Shown in pieces: positions 12,411-40,531 of a stretch of 64,000 nt of DNA. The DNA is from Blastocatellia bacterium (lineage in GTDB: Bacteria; Acidobacteriota; Blastocatellia; UBA7656). A model generated the notes under the pieces. It saw only the letters and a list, made by a program, of their open reading frames with translations. It was not told where the DNA came from and ran no database searches. The stretch is from assembly GCA_963765495.1 (NCBI GenBank), contig CAVXWP010000002.1, forward strand, positions 352,001 to 416,000, read 5' to 3'. How positions within the stretch are numbered: the stretch's first letter is position 1; each line of letters begins with the position of its first letter. Both the position numbers and the translations under genes were made by a program.

Positions 12411-13220
12411 ATGAAGATGAGAGAACGTCTCGACAAGGTCGTAGTTGAGCGGGGGCTTGCTGAAAGCCGGACCCGCGCTCAAGCCCTGATACTTGCGGGT
12501 CAGGTGCTGGTCCGCGACCAGCGAATTGATAAGCCCGGCCAGATGGTTGACGCGGAAGCGGAGATACGAATAAAAGGCGAAACGCCAAGATATGTGAGCC
12601 GTGGCGGCCTCAAACTCGAAGCCGCCTTGGAGCAGTTCGGCCTGTCGCCCGAGCGAAAGATTTGCATAGACATTGGAGCCTCGACCGGGGGCTTTACCGA
12701 TTGCCTGCTTCAACACGGGGCCGCTCGCGTCTGGGCGGTTGATGTGGGTCATAATCAACTGGCGTGGAAAATCCGAATCGACCCTCGCGTCGAAGCGTTT
12801 GAAGGCTTCAACGCCCGTCACCTCGACGAGGAAACTTTTCTCGATAAATTTGACATCGCGACGATAGACGTTTCTTTTATTTCGCTCTCAATAATCCTGC
12901 CCGCCGTGAAGCGGGTTATTACGCCCACGGCCGATGTGATCGCACTCGTAAAGCCTCAATTCGAAGTGGGCAAAGGCGAGGTAGGCAGGGGCGGAATCGT
13001 CACTGACCCGCTCAAGCACCGCCGCGTGCTCTGTGAAGTTCGAGATGCGGCCCGCGCCACGGGGCTTAGAGCGGTCGGATTGATCGCCTCACCCATCTTT
13101 GGCGCGGAAGGCAATCGCGAGTTTCTCATTCACTTGAAACAGGTAACTTCCGGGAAAATGGATCCTATTGAGAACATCATTACTGAACTGACATCTGAAA
13201 CCGATAACCCCTCTTTGTAA
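12411..13220 (+). CDS. tlyA: TlyA family rRNA (cytidine-2'-O)-methyltransferase
   Basis: S4 domain RLDKVVVERGL, YVSRGGLKL, DIGASTGGFTD, DVSFISL, KPQFE, GNREF. Confidence 0.95.
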   Translation: MKMRERLDKVVVERGLAESRTRAQALILAGQVLVRDQRIDKPGQMVDAEAEIRIKGETPRYVSRGGLKLEAALEQFGLSPERKICIDIGASTGGFTDCLLQHGAARVWAVDVGHNQLAWKIRIDPRVEAFEGFNARHLDEETFLDKFDIATIDVSFISLSIILPAVKRVITPTADVIALVKPQFEVGKGEVGRGGIVTDPLKHRRVLCEVRDAARATGLRAVGLIASPIFGAEGNREFLIHLKQVTSGKMDPIENIITELTSETDNPSL

Positions 13221-13257
13221 GGGTATCGGCTGAAATCTCGCGTCTTAAATATATTGA

Positions 13258-13286
13258 TTGACAAATCTAATACCCAGGAGTAGAAC
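13258..13286 (+). promoter_or_regulatory. Putative sigma70 promoter of the kinase gene
   Basis: TTGACA-N17-TAGAAC in an AT-rich intergenic region; the -10 is imperfect. Confidence 0.4.
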
Positions 13287-13389
13287 CTTCCTACAGAGCG
13301 TAAATGGCTGAAACCAATAACAGACCGCTTGAGTCTATTTGTATCAGGCAACCTTTTTCCTATCCCAGTATTGCCTAGAGGTAGAATCA

Positions 13390-16386
13390 TTGATAACTGA
13401 TGTGATTTCGCATTATCGAGTTCTAGGAAAGCTCGGCTCTGGAGGGATGGGCAAGGTTTTTCTTGCAGAGGATATAAAGCTCGGGCGTAGAGTTGCTATC
13501 AAGTTTCTGCTTGAAAAAGGGGGAGAGGATGATCTGGCAAGGAAGCGGCTGATAAGAGAGGCGCAAGCGGCTGCCGCTTTGGATCATCCGAACATTTGCG
13601 CCATCCACGAGATAAACGACGAAGGGCCTCGCCCCTTTATCGTGATGCAGTATATCGAGGGAGACAATCTCGCGAAAAAGATAAAAGACCATCCTCTTGA
13701 ACTCGCAGAGATAATTGAGATAGCAGAGCAGTTGATCGGGGCGCTCATCGAAGCGCATTCGCGCGGGATTATTCATAGAGATATAAAACCCCAGAATATA
13801 ATCGTCACCGCTCGGGGGCAAATAAAGATTTTGGACTTCGGGCTCGCAAAGATACTCCCTGAGTCTAAGACGGTACAGACGGAATCGGACACACTGAGTC
13901 AACTGACTGAAGCCGGTCAAGTAGTGGGAACCGCCGGGTACATGTCCCCCGAACTGTTAAAAGGCGAGCCGGTTGATTCTCGCACAGACATTTTCTCGCT
14001 GGGAGTGGTTCTTTATAACTGCGCCACGGGCAAGGCTACTTTTACAGGGTCCAGCACGCTTGAGATTTGCTTAAAGGTAATCCAGTTTGAACCTCCAAAA
14101 CCCTCCGACATCAACCCGGAAGTGCCAAAGGAGATGGAAAGAATAATCCTCAAGGCAATGGCAAGAGATGTTGATGCTCGCTACCAGACTGCAAGTGATT
14201 TGCTCTCGGATCTATTAGAGCTAAAAGCAACTTTGCGGGAAGAGAGTCAGATACGCACAAGTATAATGGCGCACGCGCAGGCCCCTCTACATTTTAGAGT
14301 TCCGGCGCAATTATCCGGCCTGCTGCGAGGGAAGCCGCTAAAGTTCGCCTTCCTGATCGCTCCGGTTTTCCTGATTCTGGTTGTATGGTTAGCCCTGCCC
14401 CTTTTGCGTGGCGCTCATCATATTCCACCTCCCGAGGCAAGGCTCTGGTTCGATAGAGGGACAAACGCCATACGCGAAGGCAGTTACTATCAGGCGACCA
14501 AGGCCCTGAACCACGCCCTTGAGTTGGACAACAATTTTGCGCTCGCGCATGCGCGGCTGGCAGAGGCATATATGGAGGTCGACTCCAGTGACAGGGCAAA
14601 AGAAGAGATTCTCACAGCCATATCTTTAGTCTCTGATCGAACCGCGCTTCCGAAGTTAGACGCCATATATCTGGACGCCATCGTCGCTACGGTGAGGCGA
14701 GAGCTTACGGGAGCTATCGCGTATTACCAGGAGATTGTTCGGCAAGCACCCGAATCTGAGAAATCGAGCGCATATATGGACCTTGGCCGCGCATACGAAA
14801 AGAATGAAGATATAGACAAAGCCATAGAGTTATATCAGAAAGCGGCCCATCTTGCGCCTGAATCACCCGGCGCTTTCCTTCGACTGGCAATCCTTTACGG
14901 GCGAAAACAGGATATTAAAAGCGCCTCAGACGCATTCGATAAGGCTGAAAAGATATACAGCGACTTGAGCAACCAGGAAGGAACAGCCGAAGTGTTTTTC
15001 CAGCGCGGGGTCATGCTCAATAAGATCAATAAAATCGAAGACGCGCGTGTTCAGCTTGAGAAGGCTCTGTCAATTGCCCGCCAGATTGATAACAAATATC
15101 AGCAGATCAGGGCGCAGCTTCAGTTGAGCACGGTCTATATCGAAGATAATGCCGAGGTTGCCAGGAGCACCGCGACGGAGGCCATAAACCTGGCGCAGGC
15201 TAACAACCTGCGAAACCTTGCAGTAAACGGCCTCATAGATCTCGGATATACATTCCTGCGTCGCGGGGAATATGATGAGGCCGACAGGTACTTCAAACAG
15301 GCGCTGGATTTTGCGCGTGTGGATAATGCGCCTAGAAATGAGGCCAGAGCCTTGCTCGCTCTGGGGATGTTAAACGTGACTCAGGGTAATGATGATGAGG
15401 GAATTCATCTCCTCGAACAGGCGCTTGCGTTCTATAAACCAGCAGGCTATCGCAAAGAGACCTCGCTTGCTTTGACGATGATGGGTCGCGCCCAGCGCAG
15501 CAAAGGCAATTACGAGGAAGCAATAAAGATATTCGAAGAACAGCTACACCTCTCCGAAGAGCTTGGAGATTCTGCGATGGTGGCCGATTCGCACCTGAGC
15601 CTGGCCCTCACCTGCGCTGACCAGGAGCGATACCCGGAGGCGCTCCCGCATATTGAAGAGAGCTATAAAATAGATAAATCCTCAGGGTTTCTAATGAATA
15701 CCGGATACGATGAAATGAATAGAGCCGAAAGTCTCGGGCAGTTAGGCCGGTATGACGAAGCGCGCAGTTCTCTCAGCAAAGCACTCTCGATAGCCAGTCG
15801 CCCTGAGGCTGAATTCAAGACCTTGCAGGCGTGGGTGCATATGATATATGCGCAGATCGCGCTCAGTGAGCGGAACCTCGCGGAGGCCATAAAAGAAGGC
15901 CGACAGGTGCTGGAATTGGCCGGGAAAGACCGCGATTTGACGACACAGGCAAAGTGTTCGATAGGTCTCGCGCAGGCCCTGTCAGGGGAGTCAAAGACTG
16001 CGATTACAGATTGCGAGGAGGCCGTCGCCGTTGCCAGAGAGACAAAAAGCCCGAGTTTGGTTTCTAGCGCGCTTCTATCGCTCGCCGAGGTGATGCTGCA
16101 AGCTAAAGATGCAAAGGGCGCGATAGCGACCGCGTTGCAGGCGCAGGAGATGTTTGCTCGCGCGGGTCAGAGGGAATCAGAGTGGCGATCTTTGCTTGTT
16201 GCGGCAACCGCCAGCCAGATCGCGGGCAACATGGCGCAAGCCGCAGATTATGCGGCGCGCTCCGATAGCCTGCTTTCTGCGCTTCAGCAAGATTGGGGAG
16301 CCCAGGTATTTGAGGGTTACACGAGACGACCGGATATTCGATCATATCGTAATCAATTAGCCCAATTACTCAGAATTAAAAATTGA
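13390..16386 (+). CDS. Hanks-type Ser/Thr protein kinase with TM segment and long C-terminal TPR array
   Basis: GSGGMG, VAIK, HRDIKPQN, DFG, YMSPE; hydrophobic FAFLIAPVFLILVVWLALPLL; many TPR repeats; GAGG RBS before TTG 13390. Confidence 0.9.
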   Translation: MITDVISHYRVLGKLGSGGMGKVFLAEDIKLGRRVAIKFLLEKGGEDDLARKRLIREAQAAAALDHPNICAIHEINDEGPRPFIVMQYIEGDNLAKKIKDHPLELAEIIEIAEQLIGALIEAHSRGIIHRDIKPQNIIVTARGQIKILDFGLAKILPESKTVQTESDTLSQLTEAGQVVGTAGYMSPELLKGEPVDSRTDIFSLGVVLYNCATGKATFTGSSTLEICLKVIQFEPPKPSDINPEVPKEMERIILKAMARDVDARYQTASDLLSDLLELKATLREESQIRTSIMAHAQAPLHFRVPAQLSGLLRGKPLKFAFLIAPVFLILVVWLALPLLRGAHHIPPPEARLWFDRGTNAIREGSYYQATKALNHALELDNNFALAHARLAEAYMEVDSSDRAKEEILTAISLVSDRTALPKLDAIYLDAIVATVRRELTGAIAYYQEIVRQAPESEKSSAYMDLGRAYEKNEDIDKAIELYQKAAHLAPESPGAFLRLAILYGRKQDIKSASDAFDKAEKIYSDLSNQEGTAEVFFQRGVMLNKINKIEDARVQLEKALSIARQIDNKYQQIRAQLQLSTVYIEDNAEVARSTATEAINLAQANNLRNLAVNGLIDLGYTFLRRGEYDEADRYFKQALDFARVDNAPRNEARALLALGMLNVTQGNDDEGIHLLEQALAFYKPAGYRKETSLALTMMGRAQRSKGNYEEAIKIFEEQLHLSEELGDSAMVADSHLSLALTCADQERYPEALPHIEESYKIDKSSGFLMNTGYDEMNRAESLGQLGRYDEARSSLSKALSIASRPEAEFKTLQAWVHMIYAQIALSERNLAEAIKEGRQVLELAGKDRDLTTQAKCSIGLAQALSGESKTAITDCEEAVAVARETKSPSLVSSALLSLAEVMLQAKDAKGAIATALQAQEMFARAGQRESEWRSLLVAATASQIAGNMAQAADYAARSDSLLSALQQDWGAQVFEGYTRRPDIRSYRNQLAQLLRIKN

Positions 16387-16417
16387 AACGAAACTCTGTT
16401 AAAAAGGAGCGAATCTA

Positions 16418-16540
16418 ATGTCAACAAAACAACCCCCTCCCAGAGGCGGCAGTGATAAGCCAGGCGACAACAAAACAAATAAAAAGAGTGGAGCAAAGAA
16501 AGTCGGGTCAGCAACCAAAAAAACCGGGAAGAAGAATTAA
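16418..16540 (+). CDS. Small Lys/Gly/Pro-rich peptide (40 aa), not in the ORF track
   Basis: AAGGAG RBS 8 nt upstream of ATG 16418; reads MSTKQPPPRGGSDKPGDNKTNKKSGAKKVGSATKKTGKKN*. Confidence 0.55.
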   Translation: MSTKQPPPRGGSDKPGDNKTNKKSGAKKVGSATKKTGKKN

Positions 16541-16661
16541 GACTCTAATACCTGTCCTACGGGATTGCTCAAAGGTCATCAACTATGCGATCCGTTCAAG
16601 AAAGTGGACGGGGTTCGGGTGTGGTGTGTTTCGGTCAGCCCGATCTTAAAGGAGAGCCGTC

Positions 16662-18659
16662 ATGCAGGAACAGGATGATGTAAGGGGCGGGGAACAATTT
16701 CTCAGCTTTAGCAGTCAGAACATCAAAAAGATTATCAGGAAATCGAGAACCCTGTCGGATTTCATGGAAGTGTTTGATAGCCAGAGAGGGCTCTCCAGGA
16801 GCGAGCGGTTGAGCATAGTTGCTCAAGCTCTGGTATTGCTTGATATGAACTACGTTCACCTTCCGCTTAAACGGGCTATGCACGCCGTTGACCCGATACA
16901 GAGGCTCAAGTTGCTAAAGTTTCGCCTTGCCGAAATGAGCGAGAGCGAAATGCCCAGCGAGATGCTCTTTCACCAGAGGATGCTGGAGATATTCACTTCG
17001 GCCCGCGACATCCACACGATGTATTTATTGCCCGCGCCCTTTAACGACATGACTGCCTATCTTCCGTTTCTGATCGAAGAGTACTTTGAGAAGAGACAGC
17101 AAAAATTCATGGTTTCACGAATCGTCGAAAACTATTACGACCCGCTGAGAGACAAAGGCCCTGAGTATCTCAATTATGAACCCGGCGTGGAGGTGCTTTA
17201 CTGGAACGGAATGCCGATAGGGCGAGCCATAGAGGTCAACGGTGAGAAACAGGCCGGAAGCAATATCGAAGCACGGTTCGCGCGAGGTCTCGATAACCTT
17301 ACAATCCGACCGATGGGCACATCCCTGCCGCCAGATGAAAGGTGGGTAACCTTAACCTACAAGTCTATGAAAAAGGGCGGCGCGGAATTTGAGATGAAGC
17401 AGGAATGGCTGGTCTTCAACCCTAGAGAAATCGAGAGGAAGAAGGACACACAGGACGTGCATCGAATTCGAGAACAAATATCCGTGAGGACAGACCAAAA
17501 ACGAGCCGTCGATCAAAAAAAGACAGAGATCAACCGTGTTAAGAAAATTCTCTATCCTGGAATTCAACAAAATGATTCGGACGATTTTCAAAGAGATGTG
17601 ATAAAGACCAGAATGGCCGATACGCTACGGGCCGAGCGCATAAGAGTCCATGGAAGAGAGATTGGATACATAAGGATTTTTACTTTTGAAGTAACGCCGA
17701 CCCGTCTGGTAAACGGGATTATGCGTATCCTCGTGTCCAGATCATTTCCAAAGGAAGGTCTGATTCTGGATGTTCGGGGCAATGGCGGCGGTCAGATTGA
17801 TGCGGGAGAGCGGTTGCTTCAGTTATTCACTCCCAGAAGGATAAAGCCGGAGTTGTTTGAGTTTATCAATACGCCTTTGAATCTTGAGATATGTAGGAAT
17901 GCTCCGAAAAACTGGGAACTGTCAAAGTGGGCCAAATCAATCGCAGAATCTGTTATGACTAACGCCACCTATTCTTCCGGTTTTCCTATTACCTCTGAAG
18001 CGTCTTGCAACGATATAGGTCAGGTCTATTATGGGCCTGTCGTGCTTATCACAGATGCCTTGTCTTACAGTGCAACCGACATTTTTGCGGCAGGATTTCA
18101 GGATAACGAAATTGGAAAAATTCTGGGCACAAGCGGGAATACTGGCGCAGGCGGCGCAAACGTTTGGCCGTTAAGGGATTTGAGAATCGCTCTGGGGAAA
18201 CAAGAGAAGGGTCCGTTTACCTCTCTGCCAAGAGGCACGGGGATGTCTGTTGCCGTTCGCCGTAGTGTTCGAGTCGGCAAGCACTCTGGACGACCCCTTG
18301 AGGAGTTGGGAATCATTCCAGACCACAGACATTACATGACGCGGAATGATCTTCTGGGCAGGAACAGGGATCTGATTAAGCAGGCTGCAAAATTGTTGAT
18401 AAAAGAACCCGTTTATGGAATCTCGGTCAAACTCCTACAAAACCGCGATCAGTCCAGAACGATAGAGGTCACAACCAAAAACATTTCAAGACTCGATATA
18501 TACATTAATGATCGCCCGTTTAAAACGATAGACACTACGGATGAAACGATGCGGGTCGGTAAGATACCCCAAGGAATGAAAGAGACGAAATCTATCCTGC
18601 TATTGAAAGGGTTTAATAAATCCGGCACTCTTATTGCGTCGTGCAGGCGCTCAATCTGA
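16662..18659 (+). CDS. S41 family peptidase, CPAF-like, no signal peptide
   Basis: RDIHT, LILDVRGNGGG, SYSATDIF, GAGGANV, LEELGIIPD; AAGGAG RBS. Confidence 0.85.
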   Translation: MQEQDDVRGGEQFLSFSSQNIKKIIRKSRTLSDFMEVFDSQRGLSRSERLSIVAQALVLLDMNYVHLPLKRAMHAVDPIQRLKLLKFRLAEMSESEMPSEMLFHQRMLEIFTSARDIHTMYLLPAPFNDMTAYLPFLIEEYFEKRQQKFMVSRIVENYYDPLRDKGPEYLNYEPGVEVLYWNGMPIGRAIEVNGEKQAGSNIEARFARGLDNLTIRPMGTSLPPDERWVTLTYKSMKKGGAEFEMKQEWLVFNPREIERKKDTQDVHRIREQISVRTDQKRAVDQKKTEINRVKKILYPGIQQNDSDDFQRDVIKTRMADTLRAERIRVHGREIGYIRIFTFEVTPTRLVNGIMRILVSRSFPKEGLILDVRGNGGGQIDAGERLLQLFTPRRIKPELFEFINTPLNLEICRNAPKNWELSKWAKSIAESVMTNATYSSGFPITSEASCNDIGQVYYGPVVLITDALSYSATDIFAAGFQDNEIGKILGTSGNTGAGGANVWPLRDLRIALGKQEKGPFTSLPRGTGMSVAVRRSVRVGKHSGRPLEELGIIPDHRHYMTRNDLLGRNRDLIKQAAKLLIKEPVYGISVKLLQNRDQSRTIEVTTKNISRLDIYINDRPFKTIDTTDETMRVGKIPQGMKETKSILLLKGFNKSGTLIASCRRSI

Positions 18660-18800
18660 AAGCGGGTCGGCCCAATCTTGAAGACTGTTCCAATAATGGC
18701 TGACCCGGGAAGCGGTTGTAAATTTTTCCGCCCCAGCTTGTTCGGTCGGCAGCCGATACTTTAAAATCGTTTCGCCGTGTTGGAATGATTGCGCTACTTT

Positions 18801-20015
18801 ATGCTCGCCACTTTCACACATCTCTTAGGCCCAAGAAAAGGAGAATGCGAACGCTTCGAATCCACCAGGATTTCGATAGGCCGCGCCCCCGATAATGACC
18901 TGATCTTCGGCGATAATGAAAGACGCGTCTCATCTCATCACGCAGAGATAATCCGCCGGATAGACCATTATGTCCTGCGCGATCTTGGCTCAACCAACGG
19001 GACCATGATCAACGGTCGCCGCGTCATCACAAGCGAAATAAGACCCGACGATCTGCTTGAATTCGGGGCAGGAGGCCCGCTTCTGCGCTTTGGCATCGAA
19101 CCCAAATCGGAAACCGGCGAGACACAAGAACCTGTTTCCGCACCGGGTTCTTCGAACCAGTCCGGGCAGGTAGAACCAGTTGCGAGCCGCAGCGTCATCG
19201 AAAAACTCGTCAATCGCGCCTTTCGCGCTCGATTGAGCAATAGGAGGCTTATCGCTGCCATAGTTCTGGCTATGATCCTCGGAGCGGTCGCGGGCATACT
19301 GCTCTCATCAAGGATCAGAGGAGCCAATCCGGTTGATTTGAGCTTTGCAGAAGTGGCGGCGCGGAATCATTCGGCGGTAGTCTTTATCCGCGTCGAGTTT
19401 GAGCTTTTGGATGCTGCCGGGCAGGTGGTCTCTTCCGATGCCCGCACAGGGTCGGGGTTCGTAGTCTCAACAAAAGGGCTGATCGTAACAAACCGGCATC
19501 TGATTCAGGATTGGGAGTACAGCCAGCCCGCAGTGGCCTATTCCGGGCGCACGACTAAAATAGAAGTGGTCTTTCCCGGTCAGACGCGTGAACAGGCGAT
19601 ACCGGCCGCGCTCTACCGGCTTTCAGCCTTCAAACAGACGGATGTCGCGATATTGAAGATCGAACCGCCGCCGGGCCTGCGCCCTGTCTTTGGCATCGAA
19701 AGCGATCTGAGCCATATAAATCAAGGCGAAGAGGTGGCCGTTATAGGCTATCCTCTGGGTCGGGACCTGATGCGACTGACCGGAGATGAACGGCTTGAGA
19801 CATCGCTTTCAACCGGAGTCGTCAGCCGCGTCAGTCAGGATTTTATCCAGCTCTATCTGCGCGCCTATCGCGGAAACAGCGGCGGCCCGGTCCTCAATCG
19901 GCGCGGTCGTGTTATAGGCATTCTCACTTCAAATATAGGGAGCGCCGAAGACATCGCCCTCGCTACTCCGATAGCAGCGGCTATGAACCTGATAAAGGAT
20001 GAGCCCGCGCAATGA
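18801..20015 (+). CDS. FHA domain - TM - trypsin-like (S1) serine protease
   Basis: FHA motifs IGR..DND, VSSHHA, DLGSTNGT; one TM; protease TNRH, TDVAIL, GNSGGP. Confidence 0.88.
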   Translation: MLATFTHLLGPRKGECERFESTRISIGRAPDNDLIFGDNERRVSSHHAEIIRRIDHYVLRDLGSTNGTMINGRRVITSEIRPDDLLEFGAGGPLLRFGIEPKSETGETQEPVSAPGSSNQSGQVEPVASRSVIEKLVNRAFRARLSNRRLIAAIVLAMILGAVAGILLSSRIRGANPVDLSFAEVAARNHSAVVFIRVEFELLDAAGQVVSSDARTGSGFVVSTKGLIVTNRHLIQDWEYSQPAVAYSGRTTKIEVVFPGQTREQAIPAALYRLSAFKQTDVAILKIEPPPGLRPVFGIESDLSHINQGEEVAVIGYPLGRDLMRLTGDERLETSLSTGVVSRVSQDFIQLYLRAYRGNSGGPVLNRRGRVIGILTSNIGSAEDIALATPIAAAMNLIKDEPAQ

Positions 20016-20286
20016 ATGATCGAGAATGGATGTGAAAAACAACAAATCTACTGCGTTCTTGATGAGAAGGCTTTGATTTTCTTGAAAGATTGATTGACAT
20101 TGATGTGAATGGTTGGGAATGAACTTAGATTTCCTGTCGGTCAATGGCACAATCTTTCAAATTGAGATAAAGTTCAGCAGAAGACCTGACCGGGCTTGAG
20201 TGATAGTGGGCAGGATCAACCGAAGTTTCAACACTCTCCGCTCCTATATCGCATTGGGCTTGTACAGAATAGAAAGGGAATAATGA

Positions 20287-21480
20287 ATGAGCGATCAACC
20301 ACAACACGCCCCGGAGCGCATCACTTACGAAAGATTCCAGCCGCCTGAACGGGTACTCCTAGGCCCCGGCCCGAGCCCTGTCGAAGATCGCGTGCTTGAA
20401 GCCATGGCCGCGCCCGTGCTCGGCCATCTCGATCCGCTTTTCCTGAAATGCATGGACGACATTCAGGAGATGCTCCGCTATGTATTCGAGACCTCAAACC
20501 GGCTGACCATTCCCATTTCAGGAACCGGCAGCGCAGGCATGGAAGCCGCGCTTGTAAATATTATCGAGCCGGGCGATGAAGTCATAGTCTGCATCCACGG
20601 CGTATTCGGCGAGCGAATGCACGAGATCATCGAACGCGCGGGCGGAACACCCATTGCCATCAGGACCGAATGGGGGCGACCTACGGATAAGAACCGCATA
20701 GAAGACGCTTTCAAGTCCCACAACCCGCGCGCCATTGCGATAGTCCACGCCGAGACTTCCACGGGTGTGCTCCAGGATTTATCGGGGCTCGGCGAACTGG
20801 CTCACAGCCGCGACGCGCTGCTGATAGTCGATGCGGTCACATCGCTCGGCGGTCACCCGGTCGGCGTAGACCGCAACCATATCGATGTCTGTTATTCGGG
20901 CACTCAAAAATGTCTGGGCGCGCCTCCCGGTCTTGCGCCAATTACGTTTTCAGACATCGCGGTTGAAAGCATTCGCTCGCGCCGCTCAAAGGTGCAAAGC
21001 TGGTATCTGGACATGACCATGGTAGAGCGATACTGGGGCGCGGATCGCGCATACCATCACACCGCGCCTATCTCTATGAACTATGCCCTGCGCGAGGCGC
21101 TGCGTATCGTATACACGGAAGGGCTTGAATCGAGGTGGGAGAGGCACAGGGCGAATCATCTTGCGCTTGTCGCGGGGCTTGAAGCGATGGGGCTCGAGAT
21201 GCTTGTCGCGCCCGGTGATCGCCTGTGGAGCCTCAATGCCGTTCGCGTGCCCGAAGGCGTAGACGACGGGCGAGTGCGGGCTCGATTGCTTAATGATTTT
21301 AACATCGAAATAGGCGGCGGTCTCGGCCCGCTCAAGAACAGGTTATGGAGGATCGGATTGATGGGTTCCGGCAGCACGCGAGAAAACGTATTGCTGGTGC
21401 TTGACGGCCTTCGCAGCGCGCTCGCAGGCGAAGGCTACGATTGCCCATCAGGAATCGAGGCGGCCTCTCGCATCGCGTGA
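20287..21480 (+). CDS. Alanine-glyoxylate/serine-pyruvate aminotransferase (class V)
   Basis: [36 protein letters not shown]. Confidence 0.92.
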
Positions 21481-21557
21481 TACGTGATCCGTGATTTTCA
21501 GGGAAATGGCTGTTAACAGGTAATTGCCAATCTCCGGGTCACGCATCACGAATCACG
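21476..21557. repeat. Heptamer-armed element (family A) with conserved core
   Basis: Core ATGGCTGTTAACAGGTAATTGCCAATCTCCGGG is identical to the one at about 31915-31947. Confidence 0.8.
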
Positions 21558-21581
21558 AACCAGATCATATCGGAGTTAAAT

Positions 21582-23729
21582 ATGAGTGACCCGATCAAGC
21601 AAAAACAGTCGAAGTCAGGAAGCGGCGAAGCAGCTAACGTATTGTTACCGCAGACGTTGTTTCTTCAGAGGCAGTTGATGTTCAACCGCGAACTGTCCTG
21701 GCTGGAGTTCAACAGGCGCGTGCTCGAAGAGGCGCTCGACCCCACGCAACCGCTCCTGGAACGGTTGAAATTCCTCTCGATCTTTTCGACGAATCTGGAC
21801 GAGTTTTTCATGATCCGGGTGTCGGGGCTCAAGCAACAGATCGAAGCGGGCGTATCCGATTTATCCGTAGACGGCATGACGCCTTCGGCGCAGATGAAAG
21901 AGATATGCGACCGGCTGCGCCCGATACTTTCACAGCAAATGAGTTGTTTGAAGGAAGAGATTCTTCCTCAGTTGAGCCAGGAAGGGATACTGATCACACC
22001 CTATCGCGCGCTATCGGATCGCGAAAGACGGACGTTGAATGACTACTTCATAGAGAACGTCTTTCCGGTGCTCACGCCCCAGGCCGTAGACCCGAGTCAC
22101 CCTTTCCCTTACATCTCGAATCTCAGCCTGAATCTCGGAGTGATGATTGACCCGGCGGGCGAGGTGAGCGGAAAGGCCCCGGCTACAAACTGGATCGAGC
22201 CGCGATTTGCCCGCATAAAGGTTCCCCCCATCGTGCCCCGTCTCGTGCCCGTGGGCGATTCGGGCAGCGAGTTTACGTTCCTGGAAGAGTTGATAGCGGC
22301 CAACACCGATATATTGTTCCCCGGTATGCAAGTGGGCGAGCCTCATGTTTTTCGTGTGACGCGCGACGCCGATATAGACATAAAAGAGGACGAAGCAAAC
22401 GACCTTTTGCGAACCCTGGAAGAACAACTGCGTCGCCGCCGATTTGGAACCGCCGTGCGGCTGGAAGTCTCTACCTCGATGCCGGGCGAGATGGTCAGGT
22501 ATCTGGCAAGCGAGCTGGAACTGACGGCAACCGATGTCTACACGATAGACGGCCCGCTCAACGTGCCGGGGCTGATGTCGCTATACGGGCAGGACAAACC
22601 CGAGCTAAAAGACAGACCGCTCGTGCCTTCCGTCCCTGTTGCGCTCAGAGGCGAAGAGTATATTTTCGATGTGATCAAACGGCAGGATGTTCTGGTCCAC
22701 CATCCATACAACAGCTTTTCAACGGTTGTGAATTTCATCAGCACGGCGGCGATAGACCCGGATGTTCTGGCGATCAAGATGACCCTCTACCGCACGGGGA
22801 CAGACTCGCCCATCGTTCGCGCTTTGATGGAGGCATCGGAGCGAGGCAAGCAGGTAGCCGTGCTTGTGGAACTGAAAGCCCGCTTTGATGAGGAGAGCAA
22901 CATAGCGTGGGCGCGGCAGCTTGAGCGCGAGGGCGTGCACGTCGTTTACGGCATGCTCGGACTCAAAACACACAGCAAGCTGGCGCTTGTCGTCAGACGC
23001 GAATCGGGCGCGCTGCGCCGCTATGTTCACATTGGGACGGGCAACTACAACCCGGCGACCGCGCGCATCTACACGGATCTCGGGCTTTTCACGGCAAACG
23101 AAGAGATAGGCGCGGACGCTACGGATCTGTTCAATTACCTGACTGGATTTTCGCGGCAGGACAAGTACAGAAAGCTGCTCGTGGCGCCGATCACGCTGAG
23201 AGAGCGAATGCTCTCCCTGATCGAGCGCGAGGTATTGCATCATAAAGAGGGGCGACCGGCGCGCATCATCGCCAAGATCAACTCGCTGACCGACACCAAA
23301 ATCATACGGGCGCTTTATGAAGCCTCGCAATCGGGCGTGCCTATGAATCTGATCGTCAGGGGAATATGTTCGCTCAGGCCGGGCGCGCCGGGGCTTTCAG
23401 AGACGATCAAAGTGACGAGCATCGTGGGCCGCTTCCTTGAGCACAGCCGCATCTTCTATTTTGCAAACGGCGGCGAAGAAGACATCTACATAGGCAGCGC
23501 CGACTGGATGTTTCGTAATCTGGACCGCCGGGTTGAAATCCTGACGCCGATTGAAGACCCGCGTCTGAAGCGGCATATAAAAGACGAGATACTGGACATA
23601 CTCCTGAGCGACAACGTAAAGGCGCGGCGGCTCATGCCCGACGGGTCGTATGAAAGCCTGCAACCCTATGAGGACGAAGATAGCCTGAACAGCCAGGCTT
23701 ACTTTATGAATGCCTACGGTCAGAATTGA
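21582..23729 (+). CDS. ppk1: Polyphosphate kinase 1
   Basis: [58 protein letters not shown]. Confidence 0.97.
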
Positions 23730-23731
23730 AT

Positions 23732-24367
23732 ATGAACAGAGCAGCAAACCCGAGGGGCGAATCGAAGAGCGGAGACAAAATCCGCACATTCATATGCATC
23801 GAGATACCCGACCCGATCAAAGCACGCATCTCAGACATACAACGCAGGCTCCGCAATACGGATGCGCAGGTTAGCTGGGTCAGGACAGAAAATATCCACC
23901 TTACATTGAAGTTTTTAGGCGATGTGCCGCGCTCTGCAATCGAGCGGGTCTGCCGCGCCACAGAGGCTGCGGCTGAGACGTGCGGCGAGTTTGAAATCAC
24001 GGTGAGCGGCGCGGGCTGCTTCCCTTCTCCGCAAAATCCGCGCGTGTTATGGATAGGACTGGCCGCTTTGCCGGAAAGCCTCAGAGAATTGCATACGAGG
24101 ATCGAAGATTTGCTCGCACGCCAGGGTTTCCCGCGAGAGCAGAAACGGTTTTCGCCTCACCTGACGATAGGTCGCGTCCGCTCTCCGCGAAATGCGGCGC
24201 TTGTTGCCGAGAAACTTATTGCCGGAGGCTTCGCGCCGGCAAGTTTCACCGCCCGCGAATGTATAGTGATGCGGAGCGAATTGAAATCTACAGGGTCTGT
24301 CTATACGCCTCAAGCCGTCATAACGCTTGGATCATTGCATCACATTGATAAAGGCGGAGACCAATGA
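23732..24367 (+). CDS. thpR: RNA 2',3'-cyclic phosphodiesterase (2H phosphoesterase)
   Basis: RTFICI, HLTLKFLG and PHLTIGR (two HxT motifs). Confidence 0.9.
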   Translation: MNRAANPRGESKSGDKIRTFICIEIPDPIKARISDIQRRLRNTDAQVSWVRTENIHLTLKFLGDVPRSAIERVCRATEAAAETCGEFEITVSGAGCFPSPQNPRVLWIGLAALPESLRELHTRIEDLLARQGFPREQKRFSPHLTIGRVRSPRNAALVAEKLIAGGFAPASFTARECIVMRSELKSTGSVYTPQAVITLGSLHHIDKGGDQ

Positions 24368-35850: not shown

Positions 35851-38757
35851 TTAACCGGCTTCGCCGACCAGTGTGGCGCGGGGAAGTATGGCAGGTGGTA
35901 TAAGCTCAAGAAATCGCGATACCACGGAAAATGAGCTAGGTCCTACGCCTTCGTTGGCGCTCAACGGATAGGTGAAATACAGATAACGTCTTGCCCGTGT
36001 AGCCGCTACGTAAAACAAGCGCCTCTCTTCTTCCATCTCTTCGTCCGTGTTGTAGGCCCGCGAAGACGGGAACCACCCGTCCATAACCCAGATCACAAAC
36101 ACCGCATCCCATTCCAGCCCCTTCGCTGAATGGACCGTCGAAAGCGTTACGGCTCCCTCACCTCCCGCCGCCGTTTCCGCTACGCCCGCATCGCCACGGT
36201 CGTGCATCACTTCGGCCAGCAGGTCATCCGCCTTGCGATAGCGTTTCGCTATCGTTGTCAGATGCTCAATGTCCCGCTCCCGCCTCGGGTAATCATCGTA
36301 TCTGGTCTGCAATATTCGCTTGTAGTAACGCTCTACTACATTAAGCTGGTCTTCTGGTCTGGACTCTTTCACAACCGATTGCAGCAATCGAGCGAGTTTA
36401 GCCAGTTGATCTTTATAATTTGGACGCGAGGGAAATTCTTTCAATTCCTTGAAGAGCTTCTCTTTTGCCTTCGCGGTTCGGAATTGCTTTTCGCCTATGC
36501 GAAGGAACTCGACTATGCGCTCGGCCGTGGCGTCGCCTATAAAATCAACCATCTTGAGCACGCGAAACCAGGATACGGAATCCGACGGATTCGATACGAT
36601 CCGCAAAAACGACAGCACGTCTTTGACGTGAGCAAGCTCGGCCAGCTTTATCCCGCCGAACTTGCGAAACGGGATTCCCTGTTTCCCAAGTTCGATCTCC
36701 AGATCGAACGAATGAGAGCCCGCTCGAAACAGGACCGCGACCTCGTCAAGCGAGACCCCCTCCTGCCTTAACTCTTCGATCTGCTGGACCACGAATTGTG
36801 ACTGCTCGTTTTCATCGCGGGCGCTGACAAGCATAGGTAGCCCGCCCTCTTCGATTGATGAGAAGAGCCGTTTCGAATACCCCTCGCTTGCGCCCCCGAT
36901 GATCGTATTGGCCACGTCGAGTATCGGTTGAGTGCTGCGAAAATTCTCTTCGAGTTTTATCACCTGCGCATCGGGAAAGAGTTCCGGGAACTCAAGCATA
37001 TTCTTAAAGCTCGCCCCGCGAAATGAATAGATAGCCTGACTCTCGTCTCCGACCACCGCCACATTGTTGTGCGTGCCCGCCATCAACCGGACTATCTCCG
37101 CCTGCAAGCGGTTTGTGTCCTGATACTCGTCCACCATTATGTAGCGATACTGTTCCGACAGTCGCCGCCTCAATTCTTCGCTCGCTTCGAGGGCATCGCG
37201 CAAACGTCCGAGCAGATCGTCGTAGGTGAGCAGGTGGCGTTCGCGCTTGTAGGCATCAAACAACTCGGACATCTCTTCGAGCGTGTGGAGTTCGTGCGCG
37301 AATTGCGGGTAGTGCTGATCGAGCACGTCTTCAACAGAGATCAGCTTGTTTGCGGCCATGCTGAAGATCGCAGAGACGGTATGTTTTCGCGGGAAACGCC
37401 TCTCTTTTGCGGTCAGGTCCATCTGGCGGCGGAGCAAATCTATCAGGTCTTCGGCGTCACCCGGATCAAGCACCGTAAATGCGCGGAGTACGCCTGCGAG
37501 AGCCGGATACTTTCTGAGCGTAAAATGAGCCATCGAGTGAAAGGTGCCGCCTGCGACTCTCTGGCAACGCTCATCGGCAAGCGAGGCGGCGCGAGCCAGC
37601 ATACTGGCAGCCGCGCGGCGTGTGAAGGTGAGCAGTAAAACCGATTCGGGCGCGATTCCGGTCTCTACCAATCGAGCCATGCGATAGACGAGCGTGCGGG
37701 TCTTTCCCGTGCCCGCGCCCGCCACTATCAGCAGCGGGCCGTCAATCGTTGTGACCGCTTTGTACTGCGCCTCGTTCAACTCTTTTTCGTAATCAATTCT
37801 GGCCGCGCGAGACGGAGCGGCCACGGGTTTTAGGACAAGGCGCGTCTTTGGACGGGCAGGTTTGGCCTGTCCGAGTTCGAGGTCGCGTTTGAGCGTTTTG
37901 AGAGCCGTGGCCAGTTCATCTACGGCTTTGTAACGGTTCCGCACCTCTTTGGTTAGAGAGCGGGTGATTATCGCCTGGACATCGGAGGGCAGGCCCGCCT
38001 TGATTTTTTCGAGCGGGTCCGGCTCTTTGTGCACGATGGCGTGCATCGTGTCTATGTCGTTCGCTCCTTTGAAAGGGCATCGACCCGTTATCATCTCGTA
38101 AAGCACTACGCCGAAAGAAAAGATATCCGTTCGATGGTCTACACGTCGCCCAAGCAACTGTTCAGGCGACATATAGTTGATCGTACCCATAATGGTTCCG
38201 TCCTGAGTATGGACCTGTAAAACGGTCTTTTCATCGGAGCGGACCGAGGTTTTTCGATTGCGCGCGATGAGTTTTGCGAGGCCGAAATCGAGAATCTTTG
38301 CATAGCCGTCGCGACTGACCATCAGGTTTTCAGGTTTCAGGTCGCGGTGAATTATTCCGTGCTCGTGCGCCTTGGCAAGCCCTCCGGCAATCTGAATGGC
38401 GATGTCTAACACATCAGGCAACGTAAGCTTTTGAGATTTAATCTTGTGACGCAATGTTTCGCCGTGTATGAACTCCATGGCCATGAAGGGACGGCCTTCG
38501 TCTTCGCCTACCTCGTAAACCGTGAGTATATGCGGATGGTTGAGCGCCGAGGCGGCCCGCGCTTCCTGGAGAAAACGGCGGCGGCGATCCTCTCGCGATA
38601 CGGCATCAGGGGGCAGAACTTTGAGCGCCACTACGCGGTCGAGTTTCTCGTCATAAGCCTTGTAGACCGCGCCCATACCGCCTGCGCCCAGGGGCTCGAT
38701 TACCCGGTAATGCGCGATATAACTCTCTTCAGCAATCAAATCCATAGGGCGTCCCAT
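35851..38757 (-). CDS. Ser/Thr protein kinase fused to a UvrD/REP (SF1) helicase
   Basis: Kinase GAGGMG, VALK, HRDLKPEN, DFG, YMSPEQ; helicase AGAGTGKT, VDEYQD, GD..QAIYSFRGA, NFRST, HSAKGLEW, EERRLFYVAATRAR, all in one frame; start ATG 38757 or 38745. Confidence 0.88.
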   Translation of the reverse strand: MGRPMDLIAEESYIAHYRVIEPLGAGGMGAVYKAYDEKLDRVVALKVLPPDAVSREDRRRRFLQEARAASALNHPHILTVYEVGEDEGRPFMAMEFIHGETLRHKIKSQKLTLPDVLDIAIQIAGGLAKAHEHGIIHRDLKPENLMVSRDGYAKILDFGLAKLIARNRKTSVRSDEKTVLQVHTQDGTIMGTINYMSPEQLLGRRVDHRTDIFSFGVVLYEMITGRCPFKGANDIDTMHAIVHKEPDPLEKIKAGLPSDVQAIITRSLTKEVRNRYKAVDELATALKTLKRDLELGQAKPARPKTRLVLKPVAAPSRAARIDYEKELNEAQYKAVTTIDGPLLIVAGAGTGKTRTLVYRMARLVETGIAPESVLLLTFTRRAAASMLARAASLADERCQRVAGGTFHSMAHFTLRKYPALAGVLRAFTVLDPGDAEDLIDLLRRQMDLTAKERRFPRKHTVSAIFSMAANKLISVEDVLDQHYPQFAHELHTLEEMSELFDAYKRERHLLTYDDLLGRLRDALEASEELRRRLSEQYRYIMVDEYQDTNRLQAEIVRLMAGTHNNVAVVGDESQAIYSFRGASFKNMLEFPELFPDAQVIKLEENFRSTQPILDVANTIIGGASEGYSKRLFSSIEEGGLPMLVSARDENEQSQFVVQQIEELRQEGVSLDEVAVLFRAGSHSFDLEIELGKQGIPFRKFGGIKLAELAHVKDVLSFLRIVSNPSDSVSWFRVLKMVDFIGDATAERIVEFLRIGEKQFRTAKAKEKLFKELKEFPSRPNYKDQLAKLARLLQSVVKESRPEDQLNVVERYYKRILQTRYDDYPRRERDIEHLTTIAKRYRKADDLLAEVMHDRGDAGVAETAAGGEGAVTLSTVHSAKGLEWDAVFVIWVMDGWFPSSRAYNTDEEMEEERRLFYVAATRARRYLYFTYPLSANEGVGPSSFSVVSRFLELIPPAILPRATLVGEAG

Positions 38758-38840
38758 CACCTGAATGAACCATTGTACGATTCGTGAGACATTGTAGTCC
38801 ATCAGGCGCGCTAACCAAAGTCGAATGCGGAAATAGTAAG

Positions 38841-38941
38841 ACGTAATTCGTGATGCGTGATGCGTGATGCGTGATTCGTGAGGCAAGCACTTACCTGTCA
38901 ACAGCCATCCGCCTGATAATCACGCATCACGCATCACGCAT
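38841..38941. repeat. Heptamer-armed element (family A), inverted orientation
   Basis: (GTGATGC)n and (CACGCAT)n arms; core TTACCTGTCAACAGCCAT is the reverse complement of the core seen at 21506 and 31915. Confidence 0.8.
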
Positions 38942-39058
38942 AGCGCCCCGCCGCTTTACGGCCAACAACCATAAAGTTATACTCCTAACCGTCGTCGGAC
39001 AGTGGGTCGTCACGACATGGGTCCAGTCATTTTTCAGGTAAGAGGAAGAACAGATCTG

Positions 39059-40531
39059 ATGGCTGATCTGAAAACATTGCAGGTGCCGGACACTTCCGAG
39101 CGGCTTCGACGTATTTACGATCTCGCGCTAACGGTTAGCGGCAATCCCATCGAAGTATTCGATCACATAGTCGAAATCATCGCGGAGTTGTTTGGAGTCC
39201 GCATTGCGCTTGTCGAAAAGATCGAAGGCGAAAAGATAATCGCGCTTTCCATGTATATAGATGGCCGTATACATCACGAAGGCGAATTCGATCTGACCGT
39301 CACGCCCTGCGCCAATGTGCAGCAGACTCGCTCGTTTTGCAGCTTCACCTCAGCAGCCGAAGTCTTCCCGCACGACTCTTTTCTGCGTGAGCATGCAATA
39401 ACGACTTATATCGGCATGCCAGTCATCGGAACCGACGGCGAGGTGATAGCGGTTATCAACGCGATGAATGACCGCCCGATACACCTCTCACCCGAAGACA
39501 GGCTCTTTTTGGAAGCGCTGGCATCGAGGGTGCGGCTTGAAATGGAGCGAACTGAAAAGATCACGGAAACCGCGCAGATCCGCACGTTGCTTGAAATATC
39601 ACGCGACATATCTCAGTTAAGAGGCCTTGACGACATACTCAAAATAATCGTTGACCACGTAAAAGAAGCGTTGGGTTCCGACATTGCCGCCTTTGCCACG
39701 CTCGATGAACAGGTGGGAACAACCAGTTGGAAAGCGATGGCCGGTTATCGAACCGATTCATATAAGACAGCCGTATTCGCTCCGGGTCAGGGCACAGCCG
39801 GGCGTGCCGTGGCTTCGCGCAAGACCGTCGTGCTCGAAGGCATAGGCGAAAACCCGGACCTCCCCGCAGAAGAATTTACCATTCATACGCCCGAAGCCAT
39901 TCGTAATGCCATCGGTGTCCCAGTGATCAAAAGCGACCGTGTGGTCGGGGTGCTTATTGCCGGTTACAGGTCTCAGCGGACTTTCAGCGAGCCACAGATC
40001 AGACTGGCCGAAGCCATTGCCGCTCACGCCGCCGTAGCGGTCGAAAACTCGCGCCTCTTTACCGAGCTTTCAATCCTGAACGAACGACTCGTGGATGCCG
40101 ACAGAACAAAGACCGAATTGATCGCCGAGCTTTCGACTCCCGTCATGCCGATCTGGGAGCATGTATTGTTCGTACCCATAATCGGCACCCTAAACGCCGA
40201 GCGGGCAAAGCAGGTCACCGATGCTCTGCTCAAGAAAACGGCGGGCGGCGGCGCTGAAATTGTCCTGCTCGATATCACCGGTGTCCGTACAGTCGATACG
40301 GACGCGGCGCAGCATCTTCGCAACACAATCGCGGCGGTGCGAGTGCTCGGCGCGCGGTGCATCATCACAGGCATAGGCGCAGCCGTGGCCCATACAATCG
40401 TGCGCCTCGGGATAAATCTTGAAGGAGTAAAGACTCGCCGCAAGCTCTCCGACGGGCTTCAACTCGCCCTCGAATTGATGGCCGAATCCGCTTCCGCAAA
40501 CGATATTCAAACACGTGGAAATTATTTCTGA
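39059..40531 (+). CDS. GAF-GAF-STAS protein (RsbR-like stressosome sensor)
   Basis: Two GAF-like regions (TPCANV...YIGMP; GQGTAGRA...GVPV); C-terminal ELSTPVMP, LDITGV..VDT, ITGI. Confidence 0.85.
   Translation: MADLKTLQVPDTSERLRRIYDLALTVSGNPIEVFDHIVEIIAELFGVRIALVEKIEGEKIIALSMYIDGRIHHEGEFDLTVTPCANVQQTRSFCSFTSAAEVFPHDSFLREHAITTYIGMPVIGTDGEVIAVINAMNDRPIHLSPEDRLFLEALASRVRLEMERTEKITETAQIRTLLEISRDISQLRGLDDILKIIVDHVKEALGSDIAAFATLDEQVGTTSWKAMAGYRTDSYKTAVFAPGQGTAGRAVASRKTVVLEGIGENPDLPAEEFTIHTPEAIRNAIGVPVIKSDRVVGVLIAGYRSQRTFSEPQIRLAEAIAAHAAVAVENSRLFTELSILNERLVDADRTKTELIAELSTPVMPIWEHVLFVPIIGTLNAERAKQVTDALLKKTAGGGAEIVLLDITGVRTVDTDAAQHLRNTIAAVRVLGARCIITGIGAAVAHTIVRLGINLEGVKTRRKLSDGLQLALELMAESASANDIQTRGNYF

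Follow-up and report, generated by a model that had tools for sequence, protein, structure and literature searches.

CPAF (CT858), a secreted protease of the S41 family from an intracellular pathogen, has to our knowledge been studied almost solely as a chlamydial virulence protease. Its published description includes a PDZ-like domain that carries a YLPY loop and, separating this domain from the protease domain, an inhibitory helix of 40 aa (PMC4734761). Other S41 proteases are paired with TPR proteins, as in Prc-NlpI and CtpA-LbcA, where protease and TPR protein both reside in the periplasm and the latter acts as a lipoprotein adaptor. Kinases of the Hanks type are linked to FHA proteins in PknB/PknG-GarA and in PpkA-Fha1 of the type VI secretion system, and this kinase-FHA linkage is conserved. 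A TPR protein encoded beside a small peptide recalls the RRNPP receptors, which are cytoplasmic and whose peptides carry export signals and are re-imported. These systems are among the closest known to what is encoded at positions 13390 to 20015 of the 64-kb stretch of Blastocatellia DNA that was analysed here as a whole (the window). Judged by its best relatives, the source is a soil acidobacterium of the Blastocatellia/Pyrinomonadaceae group. In this interval, four co-oriented open reading frames (ORFs) on the + strand encode a membrane Hanks-type Ser/Thr kinase with a long TPR array, a 40-aa Gly/Lys-rich protein, a CPAF-like S41 peptidase and a protein in which an FHA domain is joined through a transmembrane (TM) segment to a trypsin-like protease. 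The four genes and their domains, as listed in an earlier note on the same DNA, are borne out by the ORF coordinates and by Pfam (Table 1). The note had taken all four for one system. We consider it moderately probable that the interval instead combines an accessory three-gene cassette (13390-18659) with a resident FHA-TM-trypsin gene (18801-20015), which belongs to a block of tlyA, FHA-trypsin, aminotransferase, ppk and LigT genes.

The linkage of the first three genes is seen in genome loci and in metagenome loci. A search that started from the S41 protein first gave four genome loci. S41 homologs were then sought across 401 genomes of the phylum and found in six, the window's own included. 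Full-length orthologs of the kinase-TPR protein (about 1000 aa, 48-54% identity) are encoded directly 5' of the S41 gene at the loci L001/L014, L002, L012 and L013, and a Gly/Lys-rich small ORF lies between kinase and S41 genes in L001, L002, L012 and L013; two loci with S41 proteins of 41-44% identity (L015, L016) have no kinase nearby. At the S41 genome loci compared (L001-L003, L012-L016) we found no homologs of the FHA-trypsin, tlyA, dxs, ppk or aminotransferase genes. A scan of metagenomes gave 80 loci out of 540 relatives, and these were divided by identity to the S41 protein of the window into a close group (at least 46%, n = 64) and a distant group (below 46%, n = 16); this split was chosen after the pattern had been seen, so that the counts are descriptive and do not amount to a blind test. 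Each feature was counted at loci with sufficient sequence available. Upstream of the S41 gene, the minimum was 1 kb for TPR, 3.6 kb for the kinase domain and 450 bp for the small ORF; downstream, it was 1.3 kb for FHA or trypsin. In the close group, a TPR match directly upstream of the S41 gene was found at 37/37 loci, an upstream kinase-domain match at 23/23 and a small Lys-rich ORF at 48/50, as against 0/13, 0/7 and 0/14, respectively, in the distant group. The small-ORF count becomes 49/50 with L046, whose ORF had missed the narrower of two search ranges by 1 nt, and the remaining locus without the ORF, L057, has just 460 bp of upstream sequence. An FHA or trypsin match was found at none of the 36 close and none of the 9 distant loci. 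The neighbours of distant S41 genes are varied (peptidase S46, OPT transporter, M14 and M8 peptidases, UDG), and several S41 domains of this group are fused to an amidohydrolase.

The converse search started from the peptide. A profile of the small-ORF peptides (A2), run on 121 genomes of the class, matches eight of them, once each, and all eight matches lie directly upstream of an S41 gene or inside the cassette: the latter is the case for G000, G221 and G346, while in G405, G412, G431, G476 and G480 the match is followed, after about 200-450 nt on the same strand, by the start of the S41 gene. Because the linkage is strict and holds in both directions, we regard genes 1 to 3 as one putative functional unit; the comparison of loci shows an arrangement far beyond chance and, judged by gene order, strict co-inheritance. 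The single system of the earlier note is upheld for the kinase-TPR, micropeptide and S41 genes and not for the FHA-trypsin gene, and the neighbourhoods of homologs, to which the note had pointed as a check, divide in the same way, with genes 1 to 3 occurring together and the FHA-trypsin gene following tlyA without the cassette in two genomes. As a separate observation, in an Acidobacteriia metagenome-assembled genome (L003, 7773-12751) a kinase-TPR gene lies 33 nt downstream of an S41 gene (31% identity), with the order reversed and no small lysine-rich ORF, which may represent an independent or an ancestral form of the S41/kinase-TPR pairing.

The two genomes in question, both of the window's family, show where the FHA-trypsin gene resides. 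Contig C21 of G221 (L029) carries, in this order, genes for a Zn-ribbon protein, tlyA, FHA-trypsin (58% identity by BLASTP, 59% in a separate search), aminotransferase, ppk and LigT, and the cassette of this genome lies on another contig, C33. In G050 (L111), an FHA-trypsin ortholog of 51% identity is likewise located between tlyA and aminotransferase-ppk-LigT, and no S41 homolog of this genome appeared in the search of the phylum. What sets the window apart from both is a 5.4-kb cassette that separates tlyA from the FHA-trypsin gene. Since the relatives have these two genes side by side, tlyA marks the left edge of the presumed insertion. The cassette genes have GC contents of 0.52, 0.45 and 0.48 and GC contents at third codon positions (GC3) of 0.56, 0.44 and 0.54, against 0.55-0.59 and 0.59-0.70 in the flanking genes. 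This lower GC, together with the adjacency of tlyA and the FHA-trypsin gene in relatives and the rarity of S41 among the phylum genomes, makes the cassette look inserted. The FHA-trypsin gene is shown by these gene orders as a resident that would be a neighbour of the cassette by chance and lie outside it.

The earlier note had the kinase relaying through phosphothreonine to the FHA-TM-trypsin protease; in the four-gene system that this implies, the S41 protein and the peptide would be accessories. The protein would be suited to such a role in that its FHA domain keeps the GR, SxxH and NG motifs, which serve phosphothreonine binding, and the insertion has placed it beside the kinase in this strain, its gene being co-oriented with the S41 gene at a distance of 141 nt. 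We nevertheless consider a four-gene relay very improbable: the FHA-trypsin orthologs of G221 and G050 directly follow tlyA and do without the cassette, which in G221 is on a different contig; no cassette locus with sufficient downstream sequence has an FHA or trypsin match; and the genome encodes many other FHA, trypsin and kinase proteins, with 17 matches to the FHA-trypsin protein in G000. A membrane Hanks kinase and an FHA gene thus stand side by side in the window as in PknB/PknG-GarA and PpkA-Fha1, but the conserved linkage of those systems is missing at the cassette loci, and the relay finds no support in it.

The FHA-trypsin ORF opens at a TTG (18789), and comparison with two orthologs makes the ATG at 18801 the probable start. 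The encoded protein matches FHA (1.2e-16) and Trypsin_2 (8.1e-24) in Pfam and contains the motifs GR, SSHH, NGT, NRH, TDVA and GNSGG. Membership in the HtrA/DegP family was considered and rejected, as Pfam gives no PDZ match and the NCBIfam HtrA/DegP models score 64-68 bits against cut-offs of 416-470. Pfam identifies the left-hand flanking genes as dxs, a DUF5715 gene and tlyA, and those on the other side as genes for a class-V aminotransferase, ppk1 and LigT. The block from tlyA through FHA/TM/trypsin, class V aminotransferase and ppk1 to LigT (window 12411-24367) keeps its order in three genomes of the family.

Table 1. Features of the cassette, its neighbours and the proteins they encode (nt, window positions; residues, numbering of the respective protein).
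Feature	Position	Strand	Basis
tlyA-like S4/FtsJ methyltransferase, left flank	12411..13220	+	Pfam, synteny in L029 and L111
Gene 1: membrane Hanks-type Ser/Thr kinase	13390..16386	+	Pfam, motifs, TM prediction, orthologs upstream of S41
TPR array of gene 1 product, ~650 aa	nt 14416-16383	+	predicted extracytoplasmic
Shine-Dalgarno AAGGAG of small ORF	16404..16409	+	read from sequence, 8 nt 5' of ATG
Gene 2: 40-aa Gly/Lys/Thr-rich protein, predicted disordered, net charge +10	16418..16540	+	translation, homologous ORFs
Gene 3: CPAF-like S41 serine peptidase, 665 aa, pI 9.5, net +19	16662..18659	+	Pfam, NCBIfam, structure matches
Candidate His H118 of S41	nt 17013-17015	+	invariant in A1 and A3
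YLPF loop of S41	residues 133-136	+	sequence; compare CPAF YLPY
Variable charged interdomain segment of S41, partly low-confidence	residues 254-297, nt 17421-17552	+	A1, AF2 model
Candidate nucleophile S470 of S41, in SYSATD	nt 18069-18071	+	invariant 15/15 in A1
Candidate Glu E547 of S41	nt 18300-18302	+	invariant in A1
Extra C-terminal beta domain of S41, outside CPAF match	residues 586-665	+	AF2 model, VIA-align
FHA (cytoplasmic)-TM (~150-168)-trypsin-like serine protease (extracytoplasmic), predicted	18801..20015	+	Pfam, TM prediction

The third gene of the cassette, which has a ribosome-binding site (RBS) of its own, encodes a member of the S41 family (Peptidase_S41 PF03572, E 1.9e-18, 67 bits against a cut-off of 24). 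Its best NCBIfam model is chlamy_CPAF (NF033424; E 6.1e-21, 74.6 bits, query residues 41-391), with a score far under the 250-bit CPAF equivalog cut-off of that model. Hydrophobicity was judged by KD19 maxima, which stand in for a dedicated signal-peptide predictor. By this measure the protein has neither a hydrophobic N-terminus nor a TM-like segment, its maximum of 1.27 falling on residues 51-69 inside a folded helix, and the cytoplasmic location that had been assigned to it in the note is retained as a prediction. Because the score cut-off is failed and a signal peptide is absent, we classify the protein as a relative of CPAF and not as its ortholog. The AF2 model, built on a 15-sequence S41 alignment (A1; pLDDT 80.6, pTM 0.82), shows a predicted CPAF-like fold. 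In Foldseek against the PDB, CPAF chains take the first five ranks (E 1.8e-21 to 3.6e-19, TM-score 0.59-0.65 when normalised to the target), and VIA-align places the CPAF zymogen 3dpn_A first (Z 22.8, rmsd 3.9, 454 aligned residues within 43-584 of the model). Mature CPAF comes next with Z 20.8-21.2, the best non-CPAF chain, 4ghn, reaches Z 20.8 over 369 aligned residues, and CtpA, Prc and CtpB come to Z of about 16-18 over 240-335 residues. The CPAF-like character named in the earlier note is thus recovered by NCBIfam, Foldseek and VIA-align alike. Sequence identity to CPAF amounts to 16-19%, and a profile of the N-terminal 230 residues that includes more distant members (A3) gave no CPAF match among PDB sequences, its sole match having an E of 0.62.

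The likeness to CPAF, for which the best structural matches extend over model residues 43-585, includes the PDZ-like domain with its YLP(F/Y) loop. Residues 254-297, which vary between homologs and are charged, stand at the place equivalent to the 40-aa inhibitory helix of CPAF (PMC4734761). PF17816 (PDZ_4), which the precomputed annotation gives for every homolog, was not reproduced by hmmscan at E<=10 or in the genome search at E<=0.01. A Ser/His/Glu triad of S470, H118 and E547, like the zymogen nature of the enzyme, is a candidate assignment that we infer from conservation; H104 is invariant in A1 only. The S470 motif SYSATD aligns with GSASASE of CtpB, and which serine of the S-x-S-A-x-(D/E) motif is catalytic is presumed here. 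There is no conserved lysine in A1 at what we take to be the usual Ser/Lys dyad position of S41 enzymes, K486 not being conserved, which would agree with CPAF. The window protein differs from CPAF in lacking a signal peptide, in the extra beta domain at its C-terminus and in its genetic tie to a kinase and a small basic protein.

The family of S41 relatives numbers 2471 representatives at E<=1e-3. Relatives numbered P0130-P0253 are often fused to a further domain of the hydrolase or RNA-binding kind (Amidohydro_1, Peptidase_S8, Endonuclease_NS plus Trypsin_2, Metallophos, two S1 domains, DUF1353), and a second domain from this range was found in 15 of the 20 long relatives scanned.

The small ORF, which translates to MSTKQPPPRGGSDKPGDNKTNKKSGAKKVGSATKKTGKKN, is the sole lysine-rich small ORF of the 64-kb window. 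Homologous small ORFs occupy the same position in 54 loci, where AAAGGAG- or GGAGG-type RBSs also precede them. Their 50 distinct peptides are 28-68 aa long and are composed largely of K (23.5%), G (22.6%), P (9.8%), A (8.8%) and T (7.3%). P-G-G is present in 47/50, a Ser or Thr falls within the last 20 residues in 47/50, and the C-terminal residue is K or R in 46/50. The common pattern consists of a variable N-terminus, the motif (D/P)-P-G-G-G..G-G-G, or (G)DPGGGxxGGG, and a lysine-rich tail; the N-terminus is long (M-M-P-V-T-Q/H-M-P to A-V-Y-F), of middle length (M-T-F-P-S-T-I-L-F-G) or short, with almost nothing ahead of the motif. Pooled pairwise pN/pS is 0.29 for 16 short forms, 0.36 for 9 middle forms and 0.44 for 9 long forms, values that come from non-independent pairs and an imperfect low-complexity alignment. 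Because of the RBS, these pN/pS values and the conserved P-G-G and tail Ser/Thr, the small ORF is shown to be coding as far as sequence comparison can tell, and the 40-aa peptide with its strong RBS reported in the note appears to be real. Neither Pfam nor NCBIfam assigns the window peptide to a family (0 families), and the 162 protein matches to the small-ORF family in public databases at E<=1e-3 are all unnamed or 'hypothetical' and have no Pfam domain; a search of the ESM Atlas with a 62-aa family member was uninformative (best score 0.80). The window peptide is, by all appearances, a divergent member of a new small-protein family.

Variant forms of the peptide occur at L061 (144-317) and L062 (3456-3659), with a lysine-rich N-terminus, two to three QDQPPGGGG repeats and the usual lysine tail. 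At L001 (7412-7660, equal to G346:C9 ~859463-859711) the small ORF stops after 32 aa, the K-rich part coming first and being followed by GGGPDQPP; the glycine block and a K/R part resume in another frame, where the peptide profile matches. Two explanations offer themselves for the L001 ORF: a frame shift in the copy, or an error in the assembly of the variant type seen at L061 and L062.

Its constant position just 5' of the S41 gene raises the possibility that the small ORF is a regulatory leader, in which ribosome pausing at PPP, PPG or DPG and at the lysine run would tune S41 expression, the peptide having no function itself. Polyproline and PPG are EF-P-dependent stall motifs, and PP[G/D/P/R] or DPG/DPS is found in 47/50 distinct peptides, the window's own containing PPP; P-G-G is nearly invariant, while length and N-terminus vary strongly, as a leader would allow. 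This explanation is nonetheless unlikely. Selection appears to be purifying across the whole peptide and the composition of the lysine-rich tail is kept, the S41 gene has an RBS of its own, and the spacer between the small ORF and the S41 gene ranges from about 30 to more than 250 nt among loci. Moreover, the terminator scan gave no terminator-like site between the two, the fold of 16500-16680, the region of the spacer, shows no unusual structure (z +0.60), and Rfam has no match in 13000-20300. Promoter and terminator scans as a whole gave counts at or below shuffle expectation.

The kinase-TPR gene starts at TTG 13390, with an alternative GTG at 13402. Its product matches Pkinase (PF00069, E 5.8e-51) and many TPR families, for example TPR_12 (1.7e-42), and its kinase domain (residues 1-290) has the Hanks-type motifs intact (GSGGMG at 16, VAIK at 35, HRD at 129, DFG at 149 and SPE at 186). 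A single strongly hydrophobic segment follows (residues 321-339, nt 14350-14406, KD19 2.81), and because this is the only TM segment, the kinase domain is predicted to be cytoplasmic and the TPR array extracytoplasmic. Both parts are acidic, with net charges of -7 for the kinase domain and -18 for the TPR array. The family is wider than the cassette: homologs of the TPR domain at E<=1e-40 occur in 15 of the 401 phylum genomes, often in several copies. Kinase domains of the cassette orthologs are 51-59% identical to that of the window, those of paralogs 41-46%, and the TPR arrays of paralogs 39-54%. At 13 other loci, 15 paralogous kinase-TPR genes have neither the small ORF nor an S41 gene alongside. 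A tie of the whole kinase-TPR family to the peptide was rejected, since paralogs exist without a peptide gene. Tandem pairs of paralogs are found at L118 (G137:C29, 2881-9635) and L120 (G362:C5, 2862-9363), and some genomes carry at least three copies, so that the TPR-sensor kinase family is expanded in Blastocatellia.

This predicted topology bears on two comparisons. Prc-NlpI and CtpA-LbcA, both of which are among the structural matches, resemble the cassette in pairing an S41 protease with a TPR partner; here, however, the TPR array forms part of a Hanks kinase and, by prediction, lies beyond the membrane, whereas the S41 protein is predicted to be cytoplasmic. Direct TPR-S41 contact is topologically doubtful because the two would be on opposite sides of the membrane. 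With RRNPP receptors, the cassette shares a TPR protein encoded beside a small peptide, from which the earlier note had derived a peptide-sensing kinase. In such a circuit, of the quorum or RRNPP type, the peptide would be an exported signal for the extracytoplasmic TPR array and the S41 protein its processing enzyme. TPR domains commonly bind extended peptides, and the charges of array and peptide are opposite. The peptide, however, has no signal sequence or hydrophobic segment (maximum KD19 -1.47), the S41 protein lacks a signal peptide as well, no transporter or exporter is encoded in the cassette, and TPR arrays that are similarly conserved belong to paralogs without an adjoining peptide gene. 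An exported signal is accordingly extremely improbable, and peptide sensing in the sense of RRNPP finds no support.

For the three-gene cassette, the reading that we favour, the predicted compartments put kinase domain, small protein and S41 protein together in the cytoplasm and the TPR array outside. In the mechanism that we propose as the simplest, the TPR array would sense a periplasmic cue, and the cytoplasmic kinase domain would phosphorylate Ser/Thr of the small basic protein, of the protease or of both. Phosphorylation would in turn control regulated proteolysis by the S41 enzyme, which, like CPAF, is probably made as a zymogen, with the variable segment that lies between PDZ-like and protease domains blocking its activity. 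The small protein might be a dedicated substrate, a cofactor or a phospho-switchable tether of the kinase/protease pair. The chain as a whole, from kinase through small protein or protease to proteolysis, is a tentative proposal with a rather limited probability of being correct. The MARCKS effector domain, a polybasic phospho-switch segment, and H1-like Lys/Ala/Thr tails are drawn on by analogy with no homology claimed: the peptides, too, are short, lysine-rich and by prediction disordered, 47/50 with embedded Ser/Thr, and their gene lies beside that of a membrane kinase. More specifically, and quite doubtfully, the cassette could be an undescribed signalling-proteolysis module of soil Acidobacteriota, in which a Hanks kinase with a periplasmic TPR sensor would control a CPAF-type zymogen of the cytoplasm via a polybasic micro-protein of 28-68 aa dedicated to it, Ser/Thr phosphorylation in the lysine tail switching its binding to membrane, nucleic acid or protease and hence proteolysis.

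Several points weigh against these proposals. Phosphorylation of the peptide or of the protease by the kinase is pure inference on our part, and the Ser/Thr of the tails could merely mirror their K/T/A/G/P-rich composition. Both S41 protein and peptide are basic, which disfavours a simple electrostatic complex; a predicted complex of the S41 protein with the 40-aa peptide (A1, A2) gave a score of 0.00 against a mark of 0.32, which counts neither way. The window peptide is itself divergent, with PPPRGGSDKPGDN replacing GDPGGGxGGGG and 36.5 bits against the A2 profile, and the peptide gene of G346/L001 looks frame-shifted, so that the peptide may be dispensable there. As regards the boundary of the cassette, there is no + strand terminator-like site between the S41 and FHA-trypsin genes, which makes read-through co-transcription possible in this strain and would be in keeping with the four-gene relay.

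The patchy distribution of the cassette would also fit a mobile conflict or anti-phage module, in which the kinase triggers the protease as effector. Besides the rarity of S41 in the phylum, the peptide occurs in 5 of 24 further genomes from the window's family, the cassette interrupts a conserved block and has a GC below that of its flanks, relatives of the S41 protein occur as fusions with subtilase, with endonuclease plus trypsin and with amidohydrolase domains, and the kinase domain matches the PADLOC models PD-T4-6 and mad6. These PADLOC matches, however, cover the generic kinase domain only, S41 protein and peptide having none (0 matches), and no integrase, transposase or defence genes lie beside the cassette in the loci examined. 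A periplasmic TPR sensor, finally, is better suited to cues from the environment or the envelope than to the detection of phage, and we consider a defence function decidedly unlikely.

In line with the statement in the earlier note that the combination was not recognised as a described system, we found no description of the cassette in the literature (open-access full text). If the proposal of a kinase-controlled zymogen is true, it would provide the first example of the CPAF branch of S41 at work in the cytoplasm of a free-living organism, together with a new kinase-linked small-protein family. The closest free-living relatives of CPAF form a large soil-bacterial family, and one S41 clade tied strictly to a sensor kinase and an unannotated small protein would offer a tractable setting outside pathogens in which to study the control of CPAF-type zymogens. 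A conserved micro-protein family would likewise be added to the poorly known Ser/Thr-kinase signalling of Acidobacteriota. The locus also calls for caution, as what looks in one genome like a persuasive four-gene 'system' would be a three-gene cassette beside an unrelated FHA-protease gene.

Elsewhere in the window, a gene on the - strand (35851-38901) encodes a 1016-aa protein that joins an N-terminal Hanks kinase domain (Pkinase 6.1e-51) to a complete UvrD-type helicase (UvrD-helicase 8.9e-69, UvrD_C 1.2e-55), and a GAF-GAF-STAS protein is encoded divergently from it at 39002-40531.

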